From: a virus
Lineage: Duplodnaviria; Caudoviricetes
Reading direction: 5' to 3' (one strand)
DNA length: 64,000 nt
IMG/VR virus record: IMGVR_UViG_3300024507_000173
Coordinates: 32,001 to 96,000 of that record
Below the pieces are notes generated by a model. The model did not search any database, was not told the origin of the DNA, and saw nothing but the letters and a program-made list of their open reading frames with translations. This document shows positions 979-32,925 of this stretch, in pieces. Position 1 is the stretch's first letter. Each line of letters begins with the position of its first letter. The translations under genes and the position numbers were made by a program.

Positions 979-3336
979 ATGATCGAACCAAGTAAGCAAC
1001 TTCAAGAAATTTTTGAAGACTCTATTAGAGTTGCAAAAGACTTAGGTCACGAATATATTACCATCGAACATATTGTTTTTGGTATTATGAACGACGATGA
1101 ATCATTCAAACTTATAGAAAGTTTTGGTGCAGATTCAACTTTTATTAAAACTAATCTTGAACATTATCTAAAAAATAATCTTAACGATATCAAGATTTCA
1201 AATCCAAATATTAAGCCAAAGAAAACTAATAGTGTGGAACGTGTGCTTAATCGTTGTTTTACACAGGTGTTGTTTAGCGGCCGTCAACGAATGGAAGTGG
1301 CCGATGTAATCATCAGTGTGTTATCAGAAAAGAATAGTTTTGCCTTTTACTTCTTAACAAAAGGTGGTGTAACTAAAGAAAAATTTGTAAAATATTTCCA
1401 AGAAAATTTTGTACAGGAAGAAGAGGTCGAATTGAGCGAAAATAAAGTTGTTAATACAAATCAAGCAGATAGAATTTTAAATCAATTCTGTACAAATTTA
1501 AGCTTCAAAGCAAAGCAGCGTAAGATTGACCCTGTTATTGGTCGTGATGATGAAATTGAAAAAATTCAACTAGTTCTAGCTCGACGTAATAAGAGTAACG
1601 TTCTTATGGTAGGTGATCCAGGTGTAGGTAAGACTGCTATTGCAGAAGGACTTGCACGTAAGATCTTTGAAAAGAAAGTCCCTAAATTCATTCAGGATCA
1701 TCAAGTTTATACACTTGATATTAGTTCATTGCTTGCTGGCAGTAAATATCGTGGTGATTTTGAAGAGCGATTAAAAGCAGTTTTATCAGCACTTGAAAAG
1801 AAAGGTAAAATTATTCTTTTTATCGACGAAGCGCATATGATGAACGGTGCAGGTGCTGCAAGTCAAAGTTCTAACGATATGGCCAATATGCTTAAGCCTA
1901 TTCTTACCAAAGGTATTATCAAACTTATTGCATCTACTACCTGGGAAGAATATCGAAAATACTTCGAAAGCGATCGTGCTCTAATGCGTCGATTCCAGCG
2001 TGTAAGTATTGAAGAACCTACTCCAGAAATCACTATTAAGATTCTTAAAGGTCTTAAAAAGTATTATGAACAACATCACAATGTTAAAATTAGTGATGCG
2101 GCTATTGACCAAGCAGTTAAATTATCTGTCAAGTATATGGCGGATAAGAAACTTCCAGATAAGGCCATTGATATCATTGACTGTGCTGCGGCTCGTTACA
2201 AACTTAAAGACGACGAAGCAATGGACGGCATTGATCAAATTGTTGACATCGAACAAGTTACATACGAACTTAGCAAGATGATCAATATGCCTTTAGAGAC
2301 TGTAGCACAAAAAGAAAGCAAAAATCTTTCAGGATTAGATGCACAAATGAAATCCGTTGTTTACGGTCAGGATAAAGCTGTTGACACATTGCTTGACAAA
2401 GTTATGGTTGCACAAGCAGGTATGAAAGCACCTAACAAACCAATTGGTTCATTCTTATTCTTAGGCCCAACAGGTTGCGGTAAAACAGAAACTGCTAAAC
2501 AACTTGCAGACAAGATGGGTATGCAACTTATTCGTTTCGATATGGGCGAATATCAAGAGAAGCATAGTGTTGCACGGTTAATTGGTGCTCCTCCAGGGTA
2601 TGTTGGTTACGAAGATAACGCAGGTCAGTTAATTACTAAACTGCAAGAACAACCTAATTCTATTTTATTGTTAGACGAAATCGAAAAAGCACATCCAGAT
2701 GTTTCTAACATTCTTCTTGCTTTTATGGATAACGGGTTTGTTACAGGATCAAATGGTAAACAAGCAGATGGTCGAAATACAATTCTTATTATGACATCTA
2801 ACCTAGGTGCTGCCGATAACGAACGTAATACCATTGGATTCGGCGAACTAGAACGCGACGGCGAAGATGATAAAGCAATTAAAAAATTCTTTGCTCCTGA
2901 ATTCCGCAATCGTCTTGACGCTGTAATTAAATTCAATAAACTTAGCGAAAAAGTTGTTGAACAAATTGTCAAGAAATTTATTGGCGATCTCAACGGTCAA
3001 CTTAAAGATAAAGGAATTGAAATTGTTCTTACAGCTAAAGCTACTCGTTGGTTAGCAGATAAAGGTTATGATAAGAAAATGGGTGCTCGCCCGTTGGCTC
3101 GTATTATCGATAACGAAGTTAAAAGTCCTTTAAGTCGTCGTGTGCTGTTTGGCGATCTAGTTAATGGTGGTCGAGTAACTGTAGATATTGTTGATGATAA
3201 ACTAGACTTTACAGTTGCAGAAATTCCTAAACCATTAACTAAAGAAGAAAAGAAAGCACTCAGAGCACAACGGGCCGCTGAAGAAGCTAAGGTAGAATCG
3301 GATGCTATCACAGAAGACCAAACAGACAACTCGTAA
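979..3336 (+). CDS. clpA: ATP-dependent Clp unfoldase, ClpA-like
   Basis: Clp-N domain, two AAA+ modules (GDPGVGKT/FIDEAH and GPTGCGKT/LLDEIEKAHPD), IGF ClpP-docking loop (NTIGFG), no ClpB coiled-coil middle domain. Confidence 0.9.
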   Translation: MIEPSKQLQEIFEDSIRVAKDLGHEYITIEHIVFGIMNDDESFKLIESFGADSTFIKTNLEHYLKNNLNDIKISNPNIKPKKTNSVERVLNRCFTQVLFSGRQRMEVADVIISVLSEKNSFAFYFLTKGGVTKEKFVKYFQENFVQEEEVELSENKVVNTNQADRILNQFCTNLSFKAKQRKIDPVIGRDDEIEKIQLVLARRNKSNVLMVGDPGVGKTAIAEGLARKIFEKKVPKFIQDHQVYTLDISSLLAGSKYRGDFEERLKAVLSALEKKGKIILFIDEAHMMNGAGAASQSSNDMANMLKPILTKGIIKLIASTTWEEYRKYFESDRALMRRFQRVSIEEPTPEITIKILKGLKKYYEQHHNVKISDAAIDQAVKLSVKYMADKKLPDKAIDIIDCAAARYKLKDDEAMDGIDQIVDIEQVTYELSKMINMPLETVAQKESKNLSGLDAQMKSVVYGQDKAVDTLLDKVMVAQAGMKAPNKPIGSFLFLGPTGCGKTETAKQLADKMGMQLIRFDMGEYQEKHSVARLIGAPPGYVGYEDNAGQLITKLQEQPNSILLLDEIEKAHPDVSNILLAFMDNGFVTGSNGKQADGRNTILIMTSNLGAADNERNTIGFGELERDGEDDKAIKKFFAPEFRNRLDAVIKFNKLSEKVVEQIVKKFIGDLNGQLKDKGIEIVLTAKATRWLADKGYDKKMGARPLARIIDNEVKSPLSRRVLFGDLVNGGRVTVDIVDDKLDFTVAEIPKPLTKEEKKALRAQRAAEEAKVESDAITEDQTDNS

Positions 3337-6627: not shown

Positions 6628-6818
6628 AACAATATCGTGTAACATATAATGTACAAACCAGTGAAGAAGACTGCGTCTTAGATCCCAACGATCCTATTCA
6701 TAAAATGAAAGAAGGAATGTTTATGGGAGGTATTGCTGGTGTAGACACGTATCTAGTATATCCAGAAAAACAAAGCATTGACTCCGACGAAAAAATTAAT
6801 CCCTTTAGTCAAGTATGA
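6624..6818 (+). CDS. Small hypothetical protein
   Basis: 64 aa, ATGA-coupled on both sides. Confidence 0.6.
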
Positions 6819-7540
6819 GAGCAGCAGAGTTTATTACTCCTCAAGAATTAGAGGAAGGTTGGAAAGACTGGGTAGCCGGTGCTGCTTTAGGTGCTGCCGC
6901 ATTAGGGCACAGTCCTAGTGCAGAGGCAGGCAAAGTAAAAAACCAAAACGATAAACCTGCAATTGTACAACAGGCAAAACAACAACATACCAAAAAAGTA
7001 GATCCGTTAAAAACAATTAGCAAAAAAGATGTTGCTAAATCTGTTACAGGAAATCCGCACGAAGTGTACCTTAAAAAGGCTGCTGAGAAAGCAGGTATAA
7101 AAGGGCCAGAGCTTGCTGCGTTTCTAGCTCAATGTGCTCACGAAACATTAGACTTTAAACATATGAAAGAAATTGGTGGATCTTTAGATTTTAAAAAATA
7201 CGATCCTAGATACGCTCCTCGCAAGGCAAAAATTTTAGGAAACAAACAAGCAGGGGACGGTGCCAAATATAAGGGACGTGGTTATATTCAGTTAACTGGA
7301 CGAGAAAATTATAAAAAAGCCGGAGAAGCTCTAGGTCTTCCTTTAGAAAAACATCCAGAGCTTGTAGAAAAACCTGAAGTTGCTGCCAAAGTTGCAGTAT
7401 GGTATTGGAAAACCCGTGTTGCTAATAAAGTTGATAGTTTTAAAGATACAAAATCTGTAACTAAACCAATTAATCCAGGAATGAAACATCTAGATCAACG
7501 TAAAGAAAAACATCAAGCATTCCAGCTAGCTATGCGATAA
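6815..7540 (+). CDS. Glycoside hydrolase family 19 (chitinase-like) muramidase
   Basis: AAFLAQCAHET, YKGRGYIQLTGRENY, AVWYW and IN motifs of GH19 phage lysins; Ala/Gly-rich N-terminal extension. Confidence 0.88.
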   Translation: MRAAEFITPQELEEGWKDWVAGAALGAAALGHSPSAEAGKVKNQNDKPAIVQQAKQQHTKKVDPLKTISKKDVAKSVTGNPHEVYLKKAAEKAGIKGPELAAFLAQCAHETLDFKHMKEIGGSLDFKKYDPRYAPRKAKILGNKQAGDGAKYKGRGYIQLTGRENYKKAGEALGLPLEKHPELVEKPEVAAKVAVWYWKTRVANKVDSFKDTKSVTKPINPGMKHLDQRKEKHQAFQLAMR

Positions 7541-8721: not shown

Positions 8722-8753
8722 AAAAGCCAGTCATAGGTTGACTGGCTTTTTTT
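8722..8753 (+). terminator. Rho-independent terminator, potentially bidirectional
   Basis: Perfect 12-bp stem AAAAGCCAGTCA/TGACTGGCTTTT, loop TAGGT, T7 tract. Confidence 0.9.
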
Positions 8754-8766
8754 GTGGCTATATAAT
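8738..8766 (+). promoter_or_regulatory. Sigma70-type early promoter overlapping the terminator
   Basis: TTGACT(8738-8743)-17 bp-TATAAT(8761-8766), then AGGAG SD and ATG 8792. Confidence 0.82.
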
Positions 8767-8791
8767 ATACTTTTATATACAGGAGAATACT

Positions 8792-9052
8792 ATGGCAAAA
8801 ATGTACGGTCCAGAAGAAAAGGCTAAACTTGAGCGTCTCATTAACGAAGGTGGAAATGTATTGCGCGAAATTGAAGATCTCCAAGAAGGCCTAAAAGAAA
8901 CCGTTAAGGCCGTAGCAGAAGAGCTACAAGTTAAACCTAGCATTATTAATAAAGCAATTAAGATTGCACATAAAGACAATTGGAAGTCTCACGAAGAAGA
9001 GTGGGATGAAATTGAAATGATTTTGGGCGTTACCAAACGTTTACCCGAATGA
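8792..9052 (+). CDS. Small dsDNA-binding protein (T4 DsbA/GapR-like)
   Basis: Helical ~86 aa EKAKLERLINEG...LKETVKAVAEELQVKPSIINKAIKIAHK; start reset to the ATG after AGGAG. Confidence 0.6.
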   Translation: MAKMYGPEEKAKLERLINEGGNVLREIEDLQEGLKETVKAVAEELQVKPSIINKAIKIAHKDNWKSHEEEWDEIEMILGVTKRLPE

Positions 9053-9339
9053 TAGAATATTTTCAACCAACTATACAATGGATCAAAGATGATTGGGCAT
9101 CTAACCGTTTACGTTTTATTATTGAGCTCCTTGCTTGGGCTATCTCAATTGGATGTAGCATCACAATGGCTGTCACAGTACCCAATCCTCCACTCCTTGC
9201 TTTATATCCTATTTGGATCACTGGTTGTGCTATGTATGCTTGGGCTGCTTGGACTAGGAAATCTTTTGGGATGCTGGCTAACTACATCCTGCTCACCACC
9301 ATTGATAGTGTTGGGCTGGTAAGAATGCTAATTAGTTAA
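9049..9339 (+). CDS. Small membrane protein, about 3 TM helices
   Basis: Three hydrophobic segments; ATGA overlap. Confidence 0.7.
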   Translation: MIEYFQPTIQWIKDDWASNRLRFIIELLAWAISIGCSITMAVTVPNPPLLALYPIWITGCAMYAWAAWTRKSFGMLANYILLTTIDSVGLVRMLIS

Positions 9340-9357
9340 ATATAAGATAGATGGTAG

Positions 9358-9410
9358 GCTGGGCCATAAACCGCATTTTTGGTATTTGCAAGCCGTAAAT
9401 TGCATAGGAG
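9358..9410 (+). promoter_or_regulatory. Tandem stem-loops before the polymerase RBS (candidate translational operator)
   Basis: GC(T)GG-GCCATAAA-CCGC and TGCAA-GCCGTAAA-TTGCA, then AGGAG SD at 9406-9410. Confidence 0.6.
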
Positions 9411-9414
9411 AAAA

Positions 9415-12084
9415 ATGAGTTACGTTGACGCTTTCTATGATCGCGAGGACGATACTATTCGTGTCGTCGAGCGAAATGATAAAGGTGAAAGGCATTTTAA
9501 GGATTATCCTGCCAAACATCTTTTCTATTACTATGACCCTAAAGGTAAATTTCAATCTATCAAGGGTGAACCACTAAGCCGTGTAAGTTGTAAGAATGTA
9601 AAAGAACTTCGCAAAGAACTTGCAATTCATTCTAACAAAAAACTATACGAATCAGATATTAATCCAATCTTTCGTTGTTTAGAAGATCATTATCTAAACA
9701 TTGATGCGCCGAAACTAAATGCAGCCTACTTCGATATTGAAGTAGATTTTGATCCAGAACGTGGCTACGCTTCGCCTGATGATGCATTTATGCCAATTAC
9801 CGCAATTGCTGTTCACCTGCAATGGTTGGACACACTTGTATGTCTTGCTATTCCTCCAAAGACAATGTCAATGGAAGAAGCTCAAAAGGCTGTCGAAGAA
9901 TTTCCTAACACGATGTTATTTGACAACGAAGCAGATATGTTGGATACATTTTTAGATCTTATTCAAGATGCTGATGTGTTGTCTGGTTGGAACAGTGAAG
10001 GTTTTGATATTCCGTATACTGTAAATCGTGTTATTAAAGTTCTAAGCAAAGAGGATACTAAACGTTTCTGTTTGTGGGATTGTTATCCTAAGAAACGTGA
10101 ATACGAAAAGTACGGAAAGACTGCTGTTACATATGATCTTATCGGTCGTGTGCATATGGACTATTTAGAATTATATCGAAAATACACATATGAAGAAAGA
10201 CACACCTATCGATTAGATGCCATCGGTGAAATGGAAGTTGGTGAAAAGAAGGTTGCCTACGAGGGAACGCTTGATCAATTATATAACAATGACTTTAAAA
10301 AGTTTATTGAATATAACAGACAAGATACTGCACTACTTGACAAACTAGATAAGAAACTAAAATTCCTAGACCTGTCCAACAAGATTGCACACGAAAACAC
10401 AGTTCTGCTACAGACAACAATGGGTGCTGTTGCCGTAACTGAACAAGCCATTATTAATGAAGCTCACCGTCGTGGTATGATTGTTCCTAATCGTAAAAAG
10501 ATGGAGGAGCAAGGAGACACACAGGCCGCTGGCGCTTATGTTGCATATCCAAAGAAAGGCATCCACGAGTGGATTGGCTCATTAGATATTAACTCACTGT
10601 ATCCGTCTGCGATTCGTGCGCTGAATATGGGCCCGGAAACTATTGTAGGACAACTACGTGCAGATGGTACCAAAGCACATCTTGAAACAGAAATGGGCAA
10701 GGGTAAATCATTTGCTGCTGCTTGGGAAGGAATATTTGGATCATTAGAATATACTTCTGTTATGAACAAAGAAGTTGGTCGAGAAATTACCATCGACTGG
10801 GAAGGCGGCGGTAGTGATACCCTGTCGGCCGCACAAATCTATGATTTAATCTTTGAAAGCAACCAACCTTGGATGATCTCAGCAAATGGAACTATCTTTA
10901 CCTATGAAGTAGAAGGTATCATTCCAGGTCTGTTAGCACGTTGGTACAAAGAACGTAAAGAGATGCAGGCCAAACTTAAAGAATGCATCAAGGCAGGTAA
11001 TACTGTTGAAGAAGAATACTGGGATAAACGACAACTAGTTAAGAAGATTAACCTAAACAGTTTGTACGGTGCTATTCTTAACCCAGGTTGCCGTTTCTTT
11101 GATAATAGAATTGGTCAAAGTACTACGCTTACAGGACGTCAGATTGCCAAACATATGGCAAGTAAAGTTAATGAAATTATTACCGGAGAATATGATCACG
11201 TTGGCAAATCAGTGATCTACGGTGACACAGACTCTTGTTATTTTTCAGCTTATTCAACGCTGAAGAAAGACATTGAGAAGGGCCTTGTTCCTTGGAATAA
11301 GGAAAACGTTGTTGAACTTTATGACACTATAGGAGAAACTGTAAATGGTACTTTCGTCAAATTCATGCAAGATGCCTTCCACGTTCCAAAATCTCGAGGA
11401 GAGGTCATCAAAGCAGGTCGCGAGATTGTTGCTTCCAAAGGACTATTCATCACAAAGAAACGATATGCCGTGCTCTACTACGACAAAGAAGGAAAGCGGG
11501 CAGACGTCGATGGCAAGCCAGGCAAGATCAAAGCAATGGGGCTTGACCTCAAAAGGTCAGATACCCCGGTTGTTATCCAAGACTTTTTAAGTGACGTACT
11601 TACAAAAGTTCTTAATGGAGCTCCGCAAGAAGAAGTACTAGAGTTTATTACAGACTTTAGAACAGATTTTAAAACACGCCCAGGATGGGAGAAAGGATCA
11701 CCAAAACGTGCAAACAACATTACAGAATACGCCAGTAAAGAGAAGAAAGCTGGCAAGGCAAATATGCCTGGTCATGTTAGAGCAAGCCTTAATTGGAATA
11801 CGCTCAAACGCCTCTACGACGACAAATACTCAATGCAAATCGTCGACGGAGCAAAAGTCATTGTCTGCAAATTAAAAGACAATCCTATGGGATATACGTC
11901 AGTAGCATATCCTGTAGACGAACTACGTTTACCTCAATGGTTTAAAGATTTACCATTCGATGACGGTTTGATGGAAACTACTGTTATCGATGAAAAATTA
12001 GAAAACTTAATTGGAGTACTAGAATGGGATATCAGTTCTACTAGAAATGATAATACCTTTAGCAAATTATTTGATTTTGAGTGA
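9415..12084 (+). CDS. Family B DNA polymerase (T4 gp43-like)
   Basis: Exonuclease motifs FDIEV, GWNSEGFDIPY, YNRQD; polymerase motifs SLDINSLYPS, KKINLNSLYG, YGDTDS, KKRY. Start at ATG 9415 after AGGAG. Confidence 0.95.
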   Translation: MSYVDAFYDREDDTIRVVERNDKGERHFKDYPAKHLFYYYDPKGKFQSIKGEPLSRVSCKNVKELRKELAIHSNKKLYESDINPIFRCLEDHYLNIDAPKLNAAYFDIEVDFDPERGYASPDDAFMPITAIAVHLQWLDTLVCLAIPPKTMSMEEAQKAVEEFPNTMLFDNEADMLDTFLDLIQDADVLSGWNSEGFDIPYTVNRVIKVLSKEDTKRFCLWDCYPKKREYEKYGKTAVTYDLIGRVHMDYLELYRKYTYEERHTYRLDAIGEMEVGEKKVAYEGTLDQLYNNDFKKFIEYNRQDTALLDKLDKKLKFLDLSNKIAHENTVLLQTTMGAVAVTEQAIINEAHRRGMIVPNRKKMEEQGDTQAAGAYVAYPKKGIHEWIGSLDINSLYPSAIRALNMGPETIVGQLRADGTKAHLETEMGKGKSFAAAWEGIFGSLEYTSVMNKEVGREITIDWEGGGSDTLSAAQIYDLIFESNQPWMISANGTIFTYEVEGIIPGLLARWYKERKEMQAKLKECIKAGNTVEEEYWDKRQLVKKINLNSLYGAILNPGCRFFDNRIGQSTTLTGRQIAKHMASKVNEIITGEYDHVGKSVIYGDTDSCYFSAYSTLKKDIEKGLVPWNKENVVELYDTIGETVNGTFVKFMQDAFHVPKSRGEVIKAGREIVASKGLFITKKRYAVLYYDKEGKRADVDGKPGKIKAMGLDLKRSDTPVVIQDFLSDVLTKVLNGAPQEEVLEFITDFRTDFKTRPGWEKGSPKRANNITEYASKEKKAGKANMPGHVRASLNWNTLKRLYDDKYSMQIVDGAKVIVCKLKDNPMGYTSVAYPVDELRLPQWFKDLPFDDGLMETTVIDEKLENLIGVLEWDISSTRNDNTFSKLFDFE

Positions 12085-14796: not shown

Positions 14797-15198
14797 ATGC
14801 GATCTCTATCTAGGAATCACGCTCCTAAATGTAGTTTACCCGGTTGCAATACTCAAGTAGGGTACCATAAAGGTTATGTTAAAAAAGATGGTACACCTAC
14901 CTGGAAATGGAAAACTTTTTGCAATCTTCATAGAACTGTGTTAAGGTTTGAAGTGGACGAATGGATGCAATCAAAAGGATGCGAAAACCAATCAGGATAC
15001 CTTGGATGGTTTTGTAGAGATCCGTATAGAAGTCTTACCATAGATCATCACGACGGTGATAAAGGCAATACATCTTCAGACAATTTAAAAATCTTGTGCG
15101 CAAATTGCCATAACGAAAAAAGTAAAATGTTTGGAGATCACAAAAAGAAATATTCTTATACAAATAAGATGTTCACAACTTTATTTGAAGAGGTTTAA
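14797..15198 (+). CDS. HNH endonuclease, free-standing homing-type
   Basis: LTIDHHDGDKGNTSSDNLKILCANCHNEKS HNH motif; N-terminal CSLPGC...FCNLH Zn-binding segment. Confidence 0.8.
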   Translation: MRSLSRNHAPKCSLPGCNTQVGYHKGYVKKDGTPTWKWKTFCNLHRTVLRFEVDEWMQSKGCENQSGYLGWFCRDPYRSLTIDHHDGDKGNTSSDNLKILCANCHNEKSKMFGDHKKKYSYTNKMFTTLFEEV

Positions 15199-31692: not shown

Positions 31693-32925
31693 TTACATAC
31701 CTATTATTTTCGAATACTCAGGAAATACCTTTGAAAATTCTTGATTTCTGTACTGGTCATGTTTTTTTATTGTTGAAATAAATGTTTGCCAAACAGCATC
31801 TTTAAATTTACCGTTTTTAATAAATCCAATGATTCCAGGAATTTGATACCACGCACTTACGTATTCTTTTGGAATTTTTTCTAATCTAGATATTACTTCT
31901 TCTTTAACATTGTCTGGCATTTTACCAATATTAAAATGTTCTGGGCCGTGTACTAAATTTAGATAAACTCCTAGGTCAGGGTAAGATTTATAATATTCAT
32001 TTAAAATGTTAGGAAGGTAAAATATGTTAATAGAACTTAAGGTAATACACCAACTAATGGACATATTTTTGTATGTATCTTTATAAGATCTTGCCTGTTG
32101 CATATTAATACAAACTTCATTCCAATTGGCTGGAAATCTCATATATTCGAATTGTTCTCCAATTCCGTCAATACTAAAACTTAGATTAATATATTTAAAA
32201 TGCTGCCATAATTCTGTTTCTTTTGGCCAGGTGGTTCCATTTGTATTATAATGCAACTCTATATCTTTTGCATAACCCTTGTCGACACAAATACGTAATA
32301 TTTCCCACATCTTCTTGCTCAGGAACGGTTCGCCGCCATAAAAATCAAACTGTTTTATTGTTTCTAAATTATTAGCAAGGTCATCCCAAAATGGACTGTC
32401 TTCATCGTATTGTTGATGATATTTCTTCATCCCTTCGCTATATTCCTTATAAGACATTTTGCTACTATGATCTAAGTCATAGGCTTCTTTCATCCATAAA
32501 GAACTAATAGAAGGATGGCACGTTCTGCATTTAATGTTACAGGTGTTTCCTAGATTTAATTCAAATTTTGCCAGGCCAGTATAGGGAGTTCGATCGCGCC
32601 ATTCTATTTCGTGAAAGTATCGATCATTATCTCGTTGACGTTTGCTTTTTCTGCCGCCATCTTCTTCTTCCCAACAAAATTTACAAGCCGGATCGCGAAC
32701 GCCTTTATCTAGATTATTTCTAATTTTTTCAGCTATTTTATTGTTAAAATTTTCTTGGATAGATGTTTTACCAATCATTAATTTATTAGGAAAAAACATT
32801 AAATTTTGATAAGAATCTACAATCATACAGCACATTTTTGTACTGCCATCATTGTTGGCACTCATTGCGTGAAACGCATTTACACACCAAGAGTTTTTAT
32901 TTTTTTCAGTTATCATAGTTGTCAT
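31693..32925 (-). CDS. Radical SAM protein with an N-terminal Twitch-like Cys domain
   Basis: WCVNAF...DGSTKMCC...CKFCW, then CNIKCRTC, GGEP, NTNGT, FSIDG. Confidence 0.88.
   Translation of the reverse strand: MTTMITEKNKNSWCVNAFHAMSANNDGSTKMCCMIVDSYQNLMFFPNKLMIGKTSIQENFNNKIAEKIRNNLDKGVRDPACKFCWEEEDGGRKSKRQRDNDRYFHEIEWRDRTPYTGLAKFELNLGNTCNIKCRTCHPSISSLWMKEAYDLDHSSKMSYKEYSEGMKKYHQQYDEDSPFWDDLANNLETIKQFDFYGGEPFLSKKMWEILRICVDKGYAKDIELHYNTNGTTWPKETELWQHFKYINLSFSIDGIGEQFEYMRFPANWNEVCINMQQARSYKDTYKNMSISWCITLSSINIFYLPNILNEYYKSYPDLGVYLNLVHGPEHFNIGKMPDNVKEEVISRLEKIPKEYVSAWYQIPGIIGFIKNGKFKDAVWQTFISTIKKHDQYRNQEFSKVFPEYSKIIGM

Follow-up and report, generated by a model that had tools for sequence, protein, structure and literature searches.

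A conserved tandem of predicted mini-pseudoknots in the DNA polymerase leader of uncultured giant phages: a candidate translational operator

Does the short gap ahead of a phage DNA polymerase gene hold an RNA element that sets how much polymerase is made? The question is raised by a stretch of 64,000 nucleotides (nt) of viral DNA (positions 32,001 to 96,000 of the IMG/VR record IMGVR_UViG_3300024507_000173; hereafter the window), which belongs to a virus contig of 134,843 bp rated 38% complete. In the window an open reading frame (ORF) for a membrane protein of 96 amino acids ends at 9339, which leaves a gap of 75 nt ahead of the gene for a family B DNA polymerase (polB; 889 amino acids, Pfam DNA_pol_B 1.1e-36). 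A first reading of the letters alone (the original prediction) had placed two stem-loops with near-identical loops in this gap and had proposed a duplicated autogenous operator. The model was phage T4, in which gp43 represses its own translation at a hairpin in the gene 43 leader (PMC3014915, excerpted text). We report that both hairpins are conserved in relatives, that each is part of a predicted H-type pseudoknot with both helices of both units backed by compensatory changes, and that the tandem element is present once per genome, always at the head of the polB operon. This RNA motif is uncatalogued, covaries strongly and has a clear gene association; it probably controls the amount of polymerase made.

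The two stem-loops have exactly the sequence that had been described. Hairpin 1, GC(U)GG-GCCAUAAA-CCGC at 9358-9374, is closed by the pairs G9358-C9374, C9359-G9373, G9361-C9372 and G9362-C9371 with U9360 bulged, and its loop GCCAUAAA covers 9363-9370. Hairpin 2 pairs UGCAA (9387-9391) with UUGCA (9400-9404) around the loop GCCGUAAA (9392-9399), and as predicted it ends one nucleotide before the Shine-Dalgarno (SD) sequence; U9405 alone separates it from AGGAG (9406-9410), and AUG follows at 9415-9417.

A polB homology search of IMG/VR gave 543 relatives, of which the best 80 (81-93% identity) were taken. Both hairpins are at the same place in all of these best 80, whose loci carry, apart from the leader of the window itself, 34 distinct leaders of 78 nt. 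The resulting 35 distinct leaders constitute alignment A1, which comes from the homology search and is unbiased. Two larger alignments, A2 (100 distinct leaders) and A3 (119), drew most of their leaders from a pattern made of the linker and hairpin 2, which matched at least 120 further stretches. This sampling is partly pattern-based and fixes some alignment columns: three hairpin 2 pairs are pattern-fixed in 65 of the 100 A2 rows, and the same pairs are invariant in the 35 unbiased rows as well.

Both hairpin stems covary, as the original prediction had expected of related polB leaders. In A1, A2 and A3 alike, every cell of hairpin 2 (100%) is paired. Its two variable pairs change in a compensatory manner, being C-G in 62, U-A in 35, A-U in two and U.G in one, and A-U in 49, G-C in 26 and C-G in 25, of the 100 leaders of A2; the corresponding counts among the 119 of A3 are C-G 73, U-A 43, A-U 2 and U.G 1 (columns 53-66) and A-U 51, C-G 39 and G-C 29 (columns 54-65). 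Hairpin 1 goes further and swaps whole stems, with 30 distinct stem sequences when the parse is anchored on the loop, and each of its four core pairs shows 10-29 double changes in A2 (10-37 with A3). The covariation score is 0.415 for A3 versus 0.152 for shuffled alignments and 0.489 for A2 versus 0.169, none of 500 shuffles reaching the observed value in either case, and registers slid along the alignment score 0.04-0.09 (A3) and 0.04-0.11 (A2).

The hairpins are only part of the fold. In each unit a GGY triplet lies 1-4 nt 5' of the stem and is complementary to the GCC that opens the loop; as the GCC pairs with this upstream GGY, each unit is a predicted H-type mini-pseudoknot, in which we refer to the upstream helix as S1 and to the hairpin stem as S2. 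The crossing order (S1 5' strand, S2 5' strand, S1 3' strand, S2 3' strand, with no shared bases) was parsed for both units. The predicted general unit is an RGY triplet, 1-4 nt, a stem of 4-6 bp, a GCY triplet, a 5-nt A-rich loop and the 3' arm of the stem, and the true 5' edge of the window's element lies a few bases upstream of where it was first drawn (Table 1).

Table 1. Parts of the tandem element and other features of the window (positions in the 64,000-nt stretch)
Feature	Position	Strand	Evidence or remark
Unit 1, S1 5' strand GGU	9353-9355	+	extendable in the window's lineage: AUGGU (9351-9355) with GCCAU (9363-9367)
Unit 1, loop 1 AG	9356-9357	+	sequence variable among parsed leaders
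Unit 1, S2 5' strand GC(U)GG, U9360 bulged (5' arm of hairpin 1)	9358-9362	+	pair covariation
Unit 1, S1 3' strand GCC (first three bases of the hairpin "loop")	9363-9365	+	GCU seen only with upstream AGU
Unit 1, loop 3 AUAAA, A-rich, crosses S1	9366-9370	+	AA present in all 16 loop variants
Unit 1, S2 3' strand CCGC	9371-9374	+	sequence, covariation
Unit 2, S1 5' strand GGU	9381-9383	+	column pair 45-58 always paired; AGU with GCU in 17 of 17
Unit 2, loop 1 AUU (family R-U-U)	9384-9386	+	nearly invariant
Unit 2, S2 5' strand UGCAA (5' arm of hairpin 2)	9387-9391	+	100% of cells paired, 119 leaders
Unit 2, S1 3' strand GCC	9392-9394	+	partner-free scans, alignment of 119 leaders
Unit 2, loop 3 GUAAA (family NNAAN)	9395-9399	+	AA columns invariant
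Unit 2, S2 3' strand UUGCA	9400-9404	+	sequence, covariation
Shine-Dalgarno AGGAG, 1 nt past unit 2	9406-9410	+	sequence
Family B DNA polymerase gene, 889 amino acids	9415-12084	+	ORF, Pfam, homology
Lon-like ATP-dependent protease	979-3336		phrog_4871, 3.7e-252
Endolysin	6815-7540
T4 DsbA-like regulator	8738-9052		directly upstream of the 96-residue membrane ORF
HNH endonuclease ORF	14797-15198		downstream of polB

S1 was tested by scans in which the partner base was left free. When unit 2 had to have AGU and its loop could open with GCC or GCU, 23 matches were obtained; 17 are polB leaders, all with GCU, and the other six (three GCC, three GCU) have neither the stem nor polB. Requiring AAGU in unit 1, with the same two loop options, gave 22 matches, of which 11 are true leaders, again all with GCU, and 11 are chance matches. 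The wobble state GGU with GCU yielded no true leader among eight matches, and the scan of GGV with NCC (80 loci of 88 stretches) recovered two true leaders, both GGC/GCC. A middle-pair variant, GAU with GYC, had 34 matches and no polB leaders, and serves as a chance baseline only. For unit 2, the states found in true leaders are GGU/GCC (103 of 119 distinct leaders), GGC/GCC (two loci) and AGU/GCU (17 loci), and neither uncompensated state, AGU/GCC or GGU/GCU, occurs among them. The first S1 pair of unit 2 (columns 45-58 of A3) is G-C in 104 and A-U in 15 of the 119 leaders and is unpaired in none.

Unit 1 was parsed with the loop as anchor in 104 distinct leaders of the main clade, as an unconstrained best-hairpin parse often chose the S1 helix itself. 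S1 is complementary in 103 of the 104 (GGU/GCC in 81, GGC/GCC in 17 and AGU/GCU in five) and mismatched in none; the lone exception, L119, has no unit 1. The AGU/GCU state of unit 1 is found on three types of stem (UAAUCA, (U)GAUCA and GCGA), which suggests more than one independent switch. In the clade that carries AGU in unit 2, unit 1 uses other complementary sets: GAGU/ACUU (three), GAGU/ACUC (two), GGGU/ACCC (one), AGUC/GACU (three) and GUC/GAC (one). Overall we infer at least two independent S1 switches in unit 1 and one in unit 2, and several in unit 1 of this clade. A U.G pair is present in S1 of unit 2 in 118 of the 119 A3 leaders; read from the opposite strand such a wobble would give a C.A mismatch, which assigns the fold to the strand of the messenger RNA (mRNA).

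The connecting loops are compatible with this fold: loop 1 spans S2 (4-6 bp) with 1-4 nt and loop 3 spans S1 (3-4 bp) with about 5 nt, lengths that suffice for an H-type pseudoknot according to general pseudoknot geometry. In unit 1, loop 1 has a variable sequence and is mostly 2 nt long (79 of 103 parsed leaders; 1 nt in 14, 3 nt in five and 4 nt in five), and the AA of loop 3 is kept in all 16 loop variants. The AA columns of loop 3 in unit 2 are partly pattern-fixed, yet they are invariant in the unbiased A1 as well. With the start of the loop paired upstream and a conserved AA in the part that crosses a short helix, the loop conservation is largely structural. The near-identical twin loops that had drawn attention to the leader are real in the window, but outside its clade the two units have no common loop sequence.

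In each of 80 loci from the pattern scan (at least 120 matches) the motif lies a few bases 5' of an SD-like sequence, and in most of them the polB N-terminus, M/L-S-Y/F-V/I-D-A...VVER, comes directly behind it. This gives 114 distinct contexts of leader plus start in which polB N-terminal codons follow the motif directly; in all 114 the SD-like core starts 0-5 nt after the 3' strand of S2 in unit 2. No conserved helix sequesters the SD. Of the 114 contexts, 90 use ATG and 24 use TTG as the start codon; one co-occurring strain among contigs of RNA libraries also has the TTG form, in its case through a TT insertion. Records with the element reach down to 65% polB identity, and well over a hundred contigs of uncultured giant phages carry it.

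In some records the polB N-terminus is not directly behind the element: a small ORF intervenes (G001, G007 and G008) or polB has a short N-terminal extension (G006). The intervening ORF of G001 (L210:1315-1533, minus strand; 61-72 amino acids) is Cys-rich (MEEFKICTECIRPEICLSRCEC...), has no PHROG match, and its stop overlaps the polB start codon; small ORFs intervene likewise in the records of L096 (G008) and L230 (G007). The next gene after the element is always polB or a small ORF that overlaps the polB start.

R1, a covariance model built on the tandem element, finds one match in the window's own contig (E 9e-22) and likewise a single match per record in five large relatives, among them a complete genome of 372,016 bp with terminal repeats (G001); the next-best matches have E values of at least 0.5 and noise-like alignments. 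A loose scan for the pseudoknot architecture in the window's contig and in G001, run without a shuffle control, returned many weak matches, none of which is tandem or abuts an SD and a start codon. The Rfam search that had been suggested as a check found no family: Rfam 15 has no match at gathering score in the 64-kb window, and at E of up to 10 the region 9300-9450 has only mir-363, a chance match of 19.5 bits against a gathering score of 58.

The nearest kin of the polymerase are those of giant T4-like phages, i.e. Sinorhizobium phage Phosso (50.6% identity) and Agrobacterium phage Atu_ph07 (47.6%), followed by Rak2/GAP32/121Q-like phages (about 43%; GAP32 43%), Vibrio 2.275.O (42%) and RB69 gp43 (about 27%). 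The collection of named phages holds no relatives of the window at the DNA level. R1 with filters off has no match at the loci of T4, RB69, Phosso, Atu_ph07, Vibrio 2.275.O and GAP32 (best E 1.7), and inspection of the same leaders by eye agrees that the element is absent from them. Nor did searches of the literature on gp43 operators and on tandem pseudoknots at polymerase genes find it.

The element is beyond chance because it is conserved and covaries in relatives, and not on account of the single sequence. The octamer GCCRTAAA is not enriched in the window (four copies against 4.52 expected), nor are hairpins with a GCCNNAAN loop and at least four contiguous pairs in the 134,843-bp contig (six versus 4.41 +/- 1.79 in 100 shuffles). 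The fold of the 91-nt leader is unremarkable (-14.0 kcal/mol, z = +0.77; 159 of 200 shuffles are equal or better). In the minimum-energy structure, computed with a program that does not handle pseudoknots, hairpin 2 is present and the AUGGU/GCCAU helix takes the place of hairpin 1.

What might such an element do? We suggest that the leader of the polB mRNA acts in cis, as an RNA of two tandem H-type mini-pseudoknots, and would serve as an operator at translation initiation: a factor bound to it would abut the SD and either impede the 30S subunit or trap it. Entrapment is the mode of action of the S15 operator of Escherichia coli rpsO. The factor would most plausibly be the polymerase itself at times when it outnumbers its DNA substrate, on the model of the autogenous control of gene 43 in T4, RB69 and RB49. 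The single target and the lack of a RegA homologue (PF01818), which was absent from the window's contig and from the complete G001 in a search that was positive in T4, favour such an autogenous loop over a general regulator.

The comparison with gene 43 supports the layout rather than the details. Both elements precede the family B polymerase gene of a T4-like lineage, in its mRNA leader near the ribosome-binding site, and the tandem element was found at no other gene. The T4 leader hairpin, AGCCU-AAUAACUC-GGGCU, has a 5-bp stem and an 8-nt loop upstream of the SD, which bears out the precedent that the original prediction had invoked, and unit 2, when drawn as a hairpin, has 5 bp and 8 nt just 5' of the SD. 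The excerpted text of PMC3014915 further describes UAAA in the RB49 loop and the importance of the 3' AC/AA loop bases in gene 43 operators; the A-rich loops of the window, which end in AUAAA and GUAAA (family NNAAN), bear only a resemblance to the UAAC/UAAA given there. By contrast, there are two units here versus one, three of the eight loop bases are predicted to pair upstream, the loop sequence differs, and the last helix is 0-5 nt from the SD compared with 8 nt in T4. No sequence or structure homology between the operators is detectable.

Other translational operators share single traits with the element. The gene 32 pseudoknot of T4, T2 and RB69 is also H-type, in the leader of a phage replication gene and under autogenous translational control (PMC3014915, excerpted text). 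In contrast to the two mini-pseudoknots that abut the SD here, it is single and larger, belongs to the gene for the single-stranded DNA-binding protein, and lies far upstream, with an unstructured A/U-rich tract behind it that is coated cooperatively. The rpsO operator resembles the element in having a pseudoknot at the ribosome-binding site (PMC3014915, same excerpts) and differs in being a single unit in a bacterial ribosomal-protein mRNA, with the initiation region inside the pseudoknot.

Several points weigh against an autogenous operator built from two pseudoknots. On the structural side, S1 has just 3 bp in most members, three leaders of the AGU clade (L222, L224 and L235) have no clear S1 in unit 1, L119 lacks unit 1 altogether, the AGU/GCU switch of unit 2 is confined to one clade and may be a single event, and the thermodynamic stability of the leader is unremarkable. 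On the functional side, the SD is outside every conserved helix, and the conserved bases (S1 and the AA of loop 3) are all explained by folding and so by themselves do not point to a protein reader. Moreover, identity to RB69 gp43 of about 27% together with the lack of an R1 match in T4 or RB69 makes the analogy with gene 43 one of function and not of homology, and the excerpted text of PMC3014915 reports the T4 gene 43 operator to be without evidence of a pseudoknot and describes autoregulation as absent in some T4-related polymerases. Hence the operator reading stands as far as it concerns a conserved sense-strand RNA that is specific to the polB leader and abuts the SD, while its notion of the shared loop as a free single-stranded recognition site does not. 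Because folding accounts for the universally conserved bases, we hold autogenous control only tentatively, at somewhat less than even confidence, with the polymerase as the putative ligand.

The leader also has promoter-like sequence, which bears on the alternatives below. In most leaders an AT-rich box similar to TATAAATA or TATAAT stops 9-14 nt short of unit 1 (window region 9336-9352; TATAAG at 9341-9346 in the window), and 95% of 93 distinct upstream regions have an A two bases ahead of the GGY, so there may be a promoter with a transcript start just ahead of unit 1. Contigs from four RNA-library runs span the leader and polB, bridging 9240-9410 and 9085-9561; these contigs carry no information on strand or ends and may include some DNA-derived sequence. 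In GAP32 (L084:1440-1470) and T4 (L215:3945-3975, minus strand) a strong terminator hairpin of the upstream gene precedes the polymerase leader, and the window has none.

The structural, positional and specificity evidence would fit equally well if the operator were read by another phage protein or by an RNA-binding protein of the host. In some relatives the Cys-rich small ORF stands between the element and polB, making the first regulated product there something other than polB, as this explanation would allow. A dedicated trans-regulator with one site would be unusual, however, and the one complete genome has the tandem element once only; RegA in particular has no homologue in that genome or in the window's contig, and RegA sites are unstructured according to the excerpts of PMC3014915, unlike this structured, single-copy element. 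We regard another reader as unlikely. Much the same judgement, that it is improbable, applies to a constitutive role, in which no regulator binds and the element guards the mRNA from decay that depends on the 5' end, or serves as a standby or enhancer platform that keeps the SD region open. No universally conserved base needs more than folding to explain it, the SD is in no case sequestered, and the upstream box and the conserved A suggest that unit 1 may be the very 5' end of the transcript, all of which agree with a protective role. Yet many highly expressed genes would then be expected to have such sites, and polB is the only gene at which the tandem element is found; two units, a spacing of 0-5 nt to the SD and a near-invariant loop 1 and near-invariant stem ends in unit 2 are more than a generic 5' clamp needs; and the RNA-library contigs continue through from the upstream ORF, although they do not reveal ends and some of their sequence may be DNA.

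Small riboswitches such as guanidine-II and preQ1-I show a similar pattern of small tandem units in which the cores are conserved and the stems covary; they are in a similar size class, place an A-rich loop in a helix groove and occur in tandem or twin arrangements. In a small tandem riboswitch one or both pseudoknots would bind a metabolite, e.g. a nucleotide-pool signal, and tune polB translation, in keeping with a cis-acting element that adjoins the SD. We consider this quite unlikely, since a binding pocket would hardly fit into units of about 22-24 nt with a 3-bp S1, the fold does not include the SD, both loop 1 and the stem of unit 1 can have any sequence, and Rfam offers no match even at E of up to 10 save the chance miRNA; unlike the known classes, there is also no known ligand logic for polB. 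The broader idea of a protein-independent sensor of nucleotide-pool or ionic signals, or in a less radical form an RNA aptamer that mimics a primer-template junction for the family B polymerase, is likewise a long shot. Finally, an intergenic location with AT-rich promoter-like sequence just upstream would suit an element that works as DNA (a promoter, an origin or a protein-binding inverted repeat). This we find very improbable: the stems swap sequence freely with pairing kept, G.U and U.G pairs that are mismatches on the other strand are in use, and covariation of crossing helices is meaningless in duplex DNA.

If the polymerase does bind its leader, the range of replicative polymerases under autogenous control would reach far past T4, RB69 and RB49, and the leaders would offer pseudoknot ligands of a family B polymerase that are natural and diversified by evolution. 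Should no protein bind, the element would be a new minimal regulatory or stabilising fold, and were it a sensor, DNA polymerase synthesis in giant aquatic phages would be set directly by metabolite levels. Either way it is useful for marking the polB operon when phages of this group are annotated, and its architecture is compact and testable.

A side observation concerns L119, the leader without unit 1, which belongs to record G010 (L387). In place of unit 1 it has a GC-rich hairpin with a U run behind it, an arrangement that resembles a terminator. The polB frame of the same record is open over 1083 amino acids with its match split at residues 605/598, which suggests an insertion of roughly 150-190 amino acids, possibly an intein.

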